Notes under the pieces: model-generated
What the model was told of the DNA's origin: nothing
The model's database searches: none
What the model saw: the letters and a program-made list of their open reading frames with translations, nothing else
Assembly (NCBI GenBank): GCA_951406725.2
Contig: OX597815.1
Span: forward strand, 75,516,001-75,580,000
Origin: Octopus vulgaris
Taxonomy: Eukaryota
Direction: 5' to 3'
DNA: 64,000 bases
Made by a program: the position numbers and the translations under genes
Shown here: one piece after another, positions 53,880 to 54,440 of the stretch
How positions within the stretch are numbered: position 1 is the first letter of the stretch
Layout of the letters: each line of letters starts with the position of its first letter

Positions 53880-54440
53880 GTGAATTGAAGAAATGGAGCT
53901 GAACGCAGATTGAACAGAAATCGTTTTATTTCATTCTACACGTGTTTCGAAAGGCACAATTTACCAAAATCCGATTGAATAATGGGACCATATTGTGTCT
54001 TTCTCTTCGGGAAGAAATAGGAAATCCGTTGGAAAAAACAAAAACAGAACAGAGGTTTCGCCATGGGCTCTTAGGAGCCTAGTTCGATTTGTTTTTGCTC
54101 CGCCTCTGTTCTGTTTTTGTTTTTTCCAACGGATTTCCTATTTCTTCCTGAAGAGAAAGACACAATATGGTCCCATTATTCAATCGGATTTTGGTAAATT
54201 GTGCCTTTCGAAACACGTGTAGAATGAAATAAAACGATTTCTGTTCAATCTGCGTTCAGCTCCATTTCTTCAATTCACCAATAATATTTTAATTTCAATT
54301 ATCCGCACCAACGCACTGTTGCAACACCATATGGTTGTACCTCCAACCGTGCTGTTTACTGCTGTGATTTTTGCTACCAAGGTATCGGTTAAACTTTTGA
54401 TTAATCTACTACAAGATTATTCATCTTTCTATTTCACATA
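53880..54440 (+). mobile_element. Young inverted-arm element in (TA)n: 176-bp arms (53880-54055 / 54103-54278), 47-nt spacer, about 160-nt tail; Penelope-like pLTR architecture
   Basis: Arms are reverse complements with one mismatch that I could see; hammerhead inside; long pure (TA)n on both sides. Confidence 0.85.
54139..54231 (+). ncRNA. Intact minimal type-I hammerhead ribozyme fold
   Basis: tatttcttc-CTGAAGA(54148-54)-gaaagacacaat..attgtgcctttc-GAAAC(54210-14)-ACGT-GTA-gaatgaaata; 12-position stem II with one mismatch, 9-bp bulged stem I, palindromic stem III ACACGTGT. Confidence 0.8.

Follow-up and report, generated by a model that had tools for sequence, protein, structure and literature searches.

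The segment at positions 53880–54440 of the 64-kb window (the whole stretch of DNA that was analysed) raises the question of how two nearly identical arms, each with a hammerhead motif, came to lie head-to-head between (TA)n tracts with a tail on one of them only. This segment is almost certainly the truncated 3' end of an EN+ Penelope-like element. It is very probably a 5'-truncated, two-armed copy of a young, high-copy and Hydra-like family of such elements (family 1 below), inserted in (TA)n, likely through twin priming.

Structure of the locus and its family

The features of the locus are as follows; negative positions refer to the element, with 0 at the end of its tail.

53782–53878, no strand: (TA)n tract of the left flank, 97 nt, taken as target DNA, the ends of the family sitting in (TA)n
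53880–54055, minus strand: inverted tail-less arm; it begins at the fixed site A, with 53880 as its outer end, and its 5' truncation lies at about -338
53927–54019, minus strand: inverted hammerhead copy with a sporadic U4C change (G at 54009 on the plus strand)
54055–54056, no strand: head-to-head junction of both arms, with 1 nt of microhomology
54056–54440, plus strand: direct arm, element about -386 to 0, comprising the 3' UTR/pLTR end, hammerhead and tail, and beginning at the fixed site B (outer end ~54440)
54139–54231, plus strand: type I hammerhead motif; its core is intact, stem II and loop 2 are long, helix III is palindromic, and cleavage is predicted after 54221
54279–54440, plus strand: tail between sites A and B, 158–160 nt in the family, running on for 47 nt to the ORF ATG in full-length tandems
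54442–54557, no strand: (TA)n tract of the right flank, 116 nt, taken as target DNA

Alignment of the arms (53880–54055 and 54103–54278, 176 nt each) yielded a single mismatch, G54009 versus T54149, which gives CCGAAGA in the inverted copy and CTGAAGA in the right copy. The initial annotation had described exactly this one core difference, together with a tail of about 160 nt restricted to the right arm, and 54279–54440 is indeed missing on the left. The 47-nt "spacer" at 54056–54102 is element sequence of the right arm and not a loop, the shared base G54055 linking the left arm to the right-arm sequence from 54056 onward. This is the only copy of family 1 in the window. At position 54323, in the tail, a private T replaces the G of the family and breaks one pair of a 9-bp GCACGGTTG/CAACCGTGC hairpin. 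Elsewhere in the window, an open frame at 323–835 on the minus strand resembles the C-terminal part of a non-LTR retrotransposon protein, with what we take to be restriction-enzyme-like endonuclease motifs.

The family is abundant and homogeneous. The right arm gave 2,155 candidate matches in the genome, 40 of which were scored and proved 98–100% identical, and a 27-nt hammerhead motif had at least 1,803 exact genome matches, the control having none. Longer copies run upstream into a single ORF, intact over 895 aa at two loci (L080 and L109), the second of which is a tandem of 3,624-bp units, and read-through from the tail toward the ORF was found at 25 places. The features by which EN+ Penelope-like elements are recognised, namely pLTRs, tandems, 5' truncation, an inverted copy and a single-ended tail, are all present. 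The L109–L110 region (G000:C1:119514000-119526700), where about three 3,624-bp units follow one another head to tail and one ORF or more is intact, is a candidate source locus.

The copy is young, since its arms differ by 0.57% (1/176; 95% interval 0.01–3.1%) and dispersed copies are 99.5% identical. Recent insertion had been deduced initially from the near identity of the arms; the age stands, while the argument needs the dispersed copies, arm identity alone being a weak clock because arms from diverged subfamilies can be identical too. The locus itself encodes nothing and is likely without function, one of many hundreds of non-coding truncated copies.

A GT site resembling a splice donor hinted at an intron of ~80 nt spanning tail and 5' UTR, but this possibility was rejected: no splice joint was found in four contig sets guessed to be RNA, and a 777-nt contig from these sets crosses the candidate intron unspliced. 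Long near-perfect palindromes adjoin family 1 insertions at three places (L033:5021-5309, L032:4430-4992 and L034:2471-4037); they are unrelated to family 1 and are probably two-armed copies of further element families.

Fixed outer ends and the origin of the inverted arm

The ends were typed in all insertions behind the first 100 places listed of the 1,803 motif matches, that is, 73 insertions after merging, on a single contig and with a hammerhead required in at least one arm. Outer ends fell at two fixed sites, A at about -163 to -150 and B at about 0, and the spacing between them, which is the tail, was 158–160 nt in 47 of the 53 tails measured (range 150–161). Among the 50 two-armed insertions, 47 combined one A with one B end, none had two A or two B ends, and three had one atypical end; the excess of A+B was highly significant as compared with an independent choice of ends (p = 7e-15). 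An identity-ranked set of 19 junctions gave 16 A+B and 3 B+other, two of the latter being cut by the end of the locus. The 23 single-orientation insertions ended at B (13) or at A (10), a count in which some far arms may have been missed.

Inner junctions, by contrast with these fixed outer ends, vary among copies, as the initial annotation would have it when it proposed a Penelope insertion with an inverted, tail-less 5' pLTR. The Penelope origin and the inverted tail-less arm are thus upheld; the designation as a 5' pLTR is not, as the longer arm was more often the tail-less one (23, versus 12 tailed, of 40 simple insertions). In BLAST-based comparisons, 38 of 50 junctions showed 1–13 nt of overlap, 2 were blunt and 10 had inserted bases. 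The two arms of an insertion shared their subfamily haplotype in 31 of 36 cases, versus 6.8 by random pairing. None of 80 arm ends lay at the ribozyme cut site, though 66 reach or pass it, and neither an empty site nor a TSD was seen. As a separate observation, 31 of 80 arm 5' ends cluster at element -400 to -300 (window 54040–54140), a stretch that immediately precedes the hammerhead and surrounds a small hairpin and the palindrome CCATGG; this cluster may mark a transcript start or palindromic microhomology.

Both kinds of end are embedded in (TA)n, which followed 58 of 60 A and 60 of 61 B anchor hits against a window background of 18.6%. The three other hits look like anchor errors, two being tailed arms with mutated markers and one a chance match. 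Among the 23 single-orientation copies, (TA)n also borders the variable 5' end in at least 10, so the repeat is target DNA and not merely a product of the reverse transcriptase (RT).

Twin priming, a term that comes from LINE-1 work, is in our view the probable mechanism when placed at two fixed RNA sites. The element protein would cut both strands of (TA)n; one DNA end would then prime cDNA synthesis at site B, the end of the tail, on uncleaved element RNA, while the other would prime at site A, about 160 nt upstream of B. A short UA-rich stretch after each of A and B could pair with the (TA)n primer. At 53880–54440 both cDNAs would have halted early, at about -386 and -338, and would have been joined head-to-head via microhomology. 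Indeed, the Poseidon element PAc of Anolis was reported in vitro to cleave and extend both strands, with two internal RT starts, an uncleaved RNA template and a predicted dimer (Frangieh et al., 2024, PMC11167929). Two points burden this model. Arm pairs overlap in 32 of the 40 simple insertions, so that twin priming would have to involve strand displacement, a second RNA molecule or a tandem transcript. In addition, the PAc assay showed no difference in start site between the strands and no homology to the cut DNA, which counts against twin priming here.

The main competitor keeps the same element and derives the inverted arm from self-priming or fold-back, for example on antisense RNA or the first cDNA, followed by an endonuclease cut at site A. 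Palindromes at inverted junctions led Arkhipova et al. (2013, PMC3846280) to propose self-priming for the Penelopes of rotifers, and this route would suit the 14 of 40 insertions, the present one included, in which the arm 5' ends lie within 50 nt of each other, as well as arms that share haplotypes and seven private variants. However, fold-back demands that the second arm lie inside the first. Of the 40 simple insertions, 18 have an A arm that outreaches the B arm by more than 50 nt, and 8 have a B arm that is tail only and has no overlap with the A arm. Neither arm is therefore a copy of the other, and the fact that either may be longer argues against fold-back and for twin priming on RNA. 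We consider fold-back unlikely as the general origin, while it could account for a subset including the 53880–54440 copy. A collapse of the assembly onto itself is much less plausible again, to the point of being highly improbable: the palindrome does sit between long (TA)n tracts, and the locus is known from the assembly, raw long reads aside, but the arms differ at one base, the left arm halts at the fixed site A of the family with no mirroring of the flank, dozens of loci show this architecture, each with a junction of its own, and an independent run yielded a contig with an opposite-strand joint in the same region and with tail ends that pass into (TA)n. A DNA transposon of the MITE or fold-back kind, bounded by terminal inverted repeats, which a long near-perfect inverted repeat in a TA context could evoke, can be set aside with near certainty. 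Its termini would have to be symmetric, whereas they are asymmetric in all 47 fully typed two-armed copies and symmetric in 0 of 50, inner junctions vary, and longer copies extend into the RT-endonuclease ORF; the initial annotation had likewise argued against a TIR MITE.

Twin priming at two fixed sites would also bear on earlier descriptions of such elements. Family 1 resembles PAc in its two internal RT starts bounding a tail, AT-rich targets, a hammerhead in the pLTR and an uncleaved RNA template. It differs in that the starts of PAc lie inside the ORF and close together, whereas in family 1 both precede the ATG (B at -47), with about 160 nt between them, and in that no one-A-one-B rule is reported for PAc in the part of the source consulted (Frangieh et al., 2024, PMC11167929). 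The Penelopes of Adineta vaga share the inverted pLTR, a tail on one inverted pLTR, low-complexity inserts between RT and endonuclease, and microhomology junctions, but they have a 31-bp "optional" tail and a low copy number, and a self-priming model was proposed for them (Arkhipova et al., 2013, PMC3846280). Opposite-strand hammerhead pairs 100–700 bp apart have also been recorded previously (Cervera and de la Pena, 2014, PMC4209133).

More generally, Penelope-like elements may integrate by an obligatory two-site twin priming, in which each cut end is committed to a different fixed RNA site, so that every two-armed insertion has exactly one tailed end and the spacing is specific to the family (73 or ~160 nt). 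In family 1, where (TA)n targeting persists without a zinc-finger linker, it would then depend on the nuclease core or on pairing between UA-rich RNA and the primer. We offer this extension tentatively, the chances lying slightly on the side of doubt. The intact ORFs, the widely spaced starts and the strict end rule make the twin-priming model directly testable in family 1.

The hammerhead motif and its core change

The right arm contains the core CUGAAGA at 54148–54154, a stem II with 11 of 12 pairs, GAAA at 54210–54213, the 8-nt palindrome ACACGUGU of helix III at 54213–54220, a GUA ending at 54221, and a stem I of 9 pairs with one bulge. A search of the window against Rfam gave no match at the gathering score, and no hammerhead family was reported over 53800–54500 at E ≤ 10; matches below the gathering score were to miRNA-hairpin models only, because of the palindrome. 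With Rfam silent, the ribozyme call rests on motif and pairing, and the "intact hammerhead" announced initially holds as a predicted motif with its core and pairing present. Subfamily variants of the hammerhead affect loop 2 and both stems (II and I) but leave the core unchanged. No compensatory changes were found among these variants, nor in the tail among 36 distinct sequences, the copies being very alike. Metazoan Penelope-like hammerheads described earlier have the same type I core and a short palindromic helix III predicted to depend on dimers (Cervera and de la Pena, 2014, PMC4209133), whereas stem II and loop 2 are unusually long in family 1, which is known by its motif.

Could the inverted arm and its U4C change form a device, kept by selection, for shutting off the ribozyme or for feeding small-RNA silencing? 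RNA folding predicts that the whole element forms one hairpin of -354 kcal/mol in which the hammerhead pairs are lost; U4C was reported to reduce hammerhead cleavage in vitro (PMC3088659), and a single random change would hit one of the 13 core positions only about 7% of the time. Yet the change occurs in just 5 of 1,803 hammerhead-motif copies, the core is preserved in 50 of the 54 tail-less arms and in 46 of the 47 that have a tail, and the hairpin would form with or without U4C (4 being the position in hammerhead numbering). Such a device is very unlikely, and the U4C change in the inverted arm is likely a random mutation.

The initial annotation had also held that the antisense arm would sequester the ribozyme in dsRNA. 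The predicted hairpin does abolish the ribozyme pairs, in agreement with this claim. When the left arm was removed, however, the hammerhead fold was still disfavoured in the right arm alone (stem II p ~0.2, stem I ~0), and hammerheads with a short palindromic helix III are described as requiring a second sense copy, monomers being inactive (Cervera and de la Pena, 2014, PMC4209133). For both reasons, the sequestration predicted by folding is probably incidental.

The family protein, its lost linker and a second family

The 895-aa protein was modelled by AlphaFold with a pLDDT of 79.6, and the top eight Foldseek hits of this model were telomerase RTs (E 3e-10); with the RT part only, VIA-align left several RT classes tied. 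A YRDD motif lies at 353, and a single ORF with a telomerase-like RT is what EN+ Penelope-like elements encode. In the C-terminal domain, the GIY-YIG-type residues Y778, Y791, G793, R802 and H806 are invariant. Pfam recognised GIY-YIG in 3 of 62 aligned members, the family 1 protein not among them, and in the Atlas cluster (score 0.94) the domain is found on 11% of members. Pfam gave no match on the 895-aa protein, sequence searches of the PDB with it returned nothing meaningful, and a single-sequence model of the endonuclease alone was unusable (pLDDT 33). The putative C-terminal GIY-YIG-type endonuclease is thus assigned by motif and homologues. One named homologue of the protein comes from an octopod.

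Further motifs point toward the Hydra clade (Craig et al., 2021, PMC8557442). As in that clade, RW(L) and DKT are present (RIRWL at 35, i.e. RWK with K replaced by L, and DKT at 122), the endonuclease lacks CCHH, with one Cys in the GIY-YIG core (780), and CxxC and CxH occur C-terminally (855 and 883); a hammerhead near the 3' end, (TA)n insertion and truncated inverted copies are likewise common to both. Unlike the clade as described there, family 1 has lost the CxCX5C linker (1 Cys), and its protein of 895 aa carries two predicted-disordered inserts. Its unit is 3,624 bp versus generally <3 kb, its tail 158–160 nt versus the 30–40 reported, and its hammerhead has a long stem II and a 31-nt loop 2 and differs in sequence from that of Hydra-1_Obim. 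By its sequence, family 1 is Hydra-clade-like and not a canonical member.

The missing linker merits particular attention. Cys742 is its sole remnant in both subfamilies examined, and the region is predicted to be disordered in the AlphaFold model, whereas 83 of 85 endonuclease-bearing homologues match CxCX5C. In a quick RT tree (43 regions, midpoint root, homologues without named Hydra references), linker-bearing relatives surround family 1, which is nested among them with a support of 99, so the loss is likely derived. A rough dN/dS between a young and an older copy was 0.21 for the RT and 0.23 for the endonuclease, versus 0.55–0.61 for the inserts, which suggests that the linker-less protein has been mobilising its own RNA. 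Craig et al. (2021, PMC8557442) proposed that the linker directs insertion to (TA)n. As the linker is gone from family 1 while the ends still lie in (TA)n, this link appears unneeded here, unless family 1 borrows the protein of a second family; the dN/dS of its own protein argues against such borrowing.

That second young family of Hydra type, with an intact CxCX5C linker and its own hammerhead, was observed in the same genome at L143 and L145 (G000:C1:68810500-68820000; C8:3328200-3337500). It has a ~5.2-kb unit with a ~2.7-kb 3' UTR rich in TA/TG repeats; its hammerhead motif has at least 3,094 matches, and its tail measures about 73 nt. Facing pairs comprised one A and one B end in 15 of 15 cases, 8 of them adjacent and 7 deduced from facing ends 2.5–9.7 kb apart with the intervening sequence assumed; three unpaired B ends were found besides.

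Craig et al. (2021, PMC8557442) name as open where the inverted arms and tail of Penelope-like elements, and their bias toward microsatellites, come from. The literature searched, which covered few subscription papers and neither Arkhipova 2006 nor figures such as Fig. S2 of PMC11167929, yielded no mention of a strict one-A-one-B rule, of tails of 73 or 160 nt or of a Hydra-type element that lacks the linker. The locus is ordinary in itself, and the family moderately interesting for its sharp, testable end rule and its lost linker; since one genome naturally contains both a protein without the linker and a family that bears it, the linker-targeting hypothesis is directly testable. As a minor observation, many short copies of the second family fold back exactly at the AGCT palindrome that starts stem I of their hammerhead.
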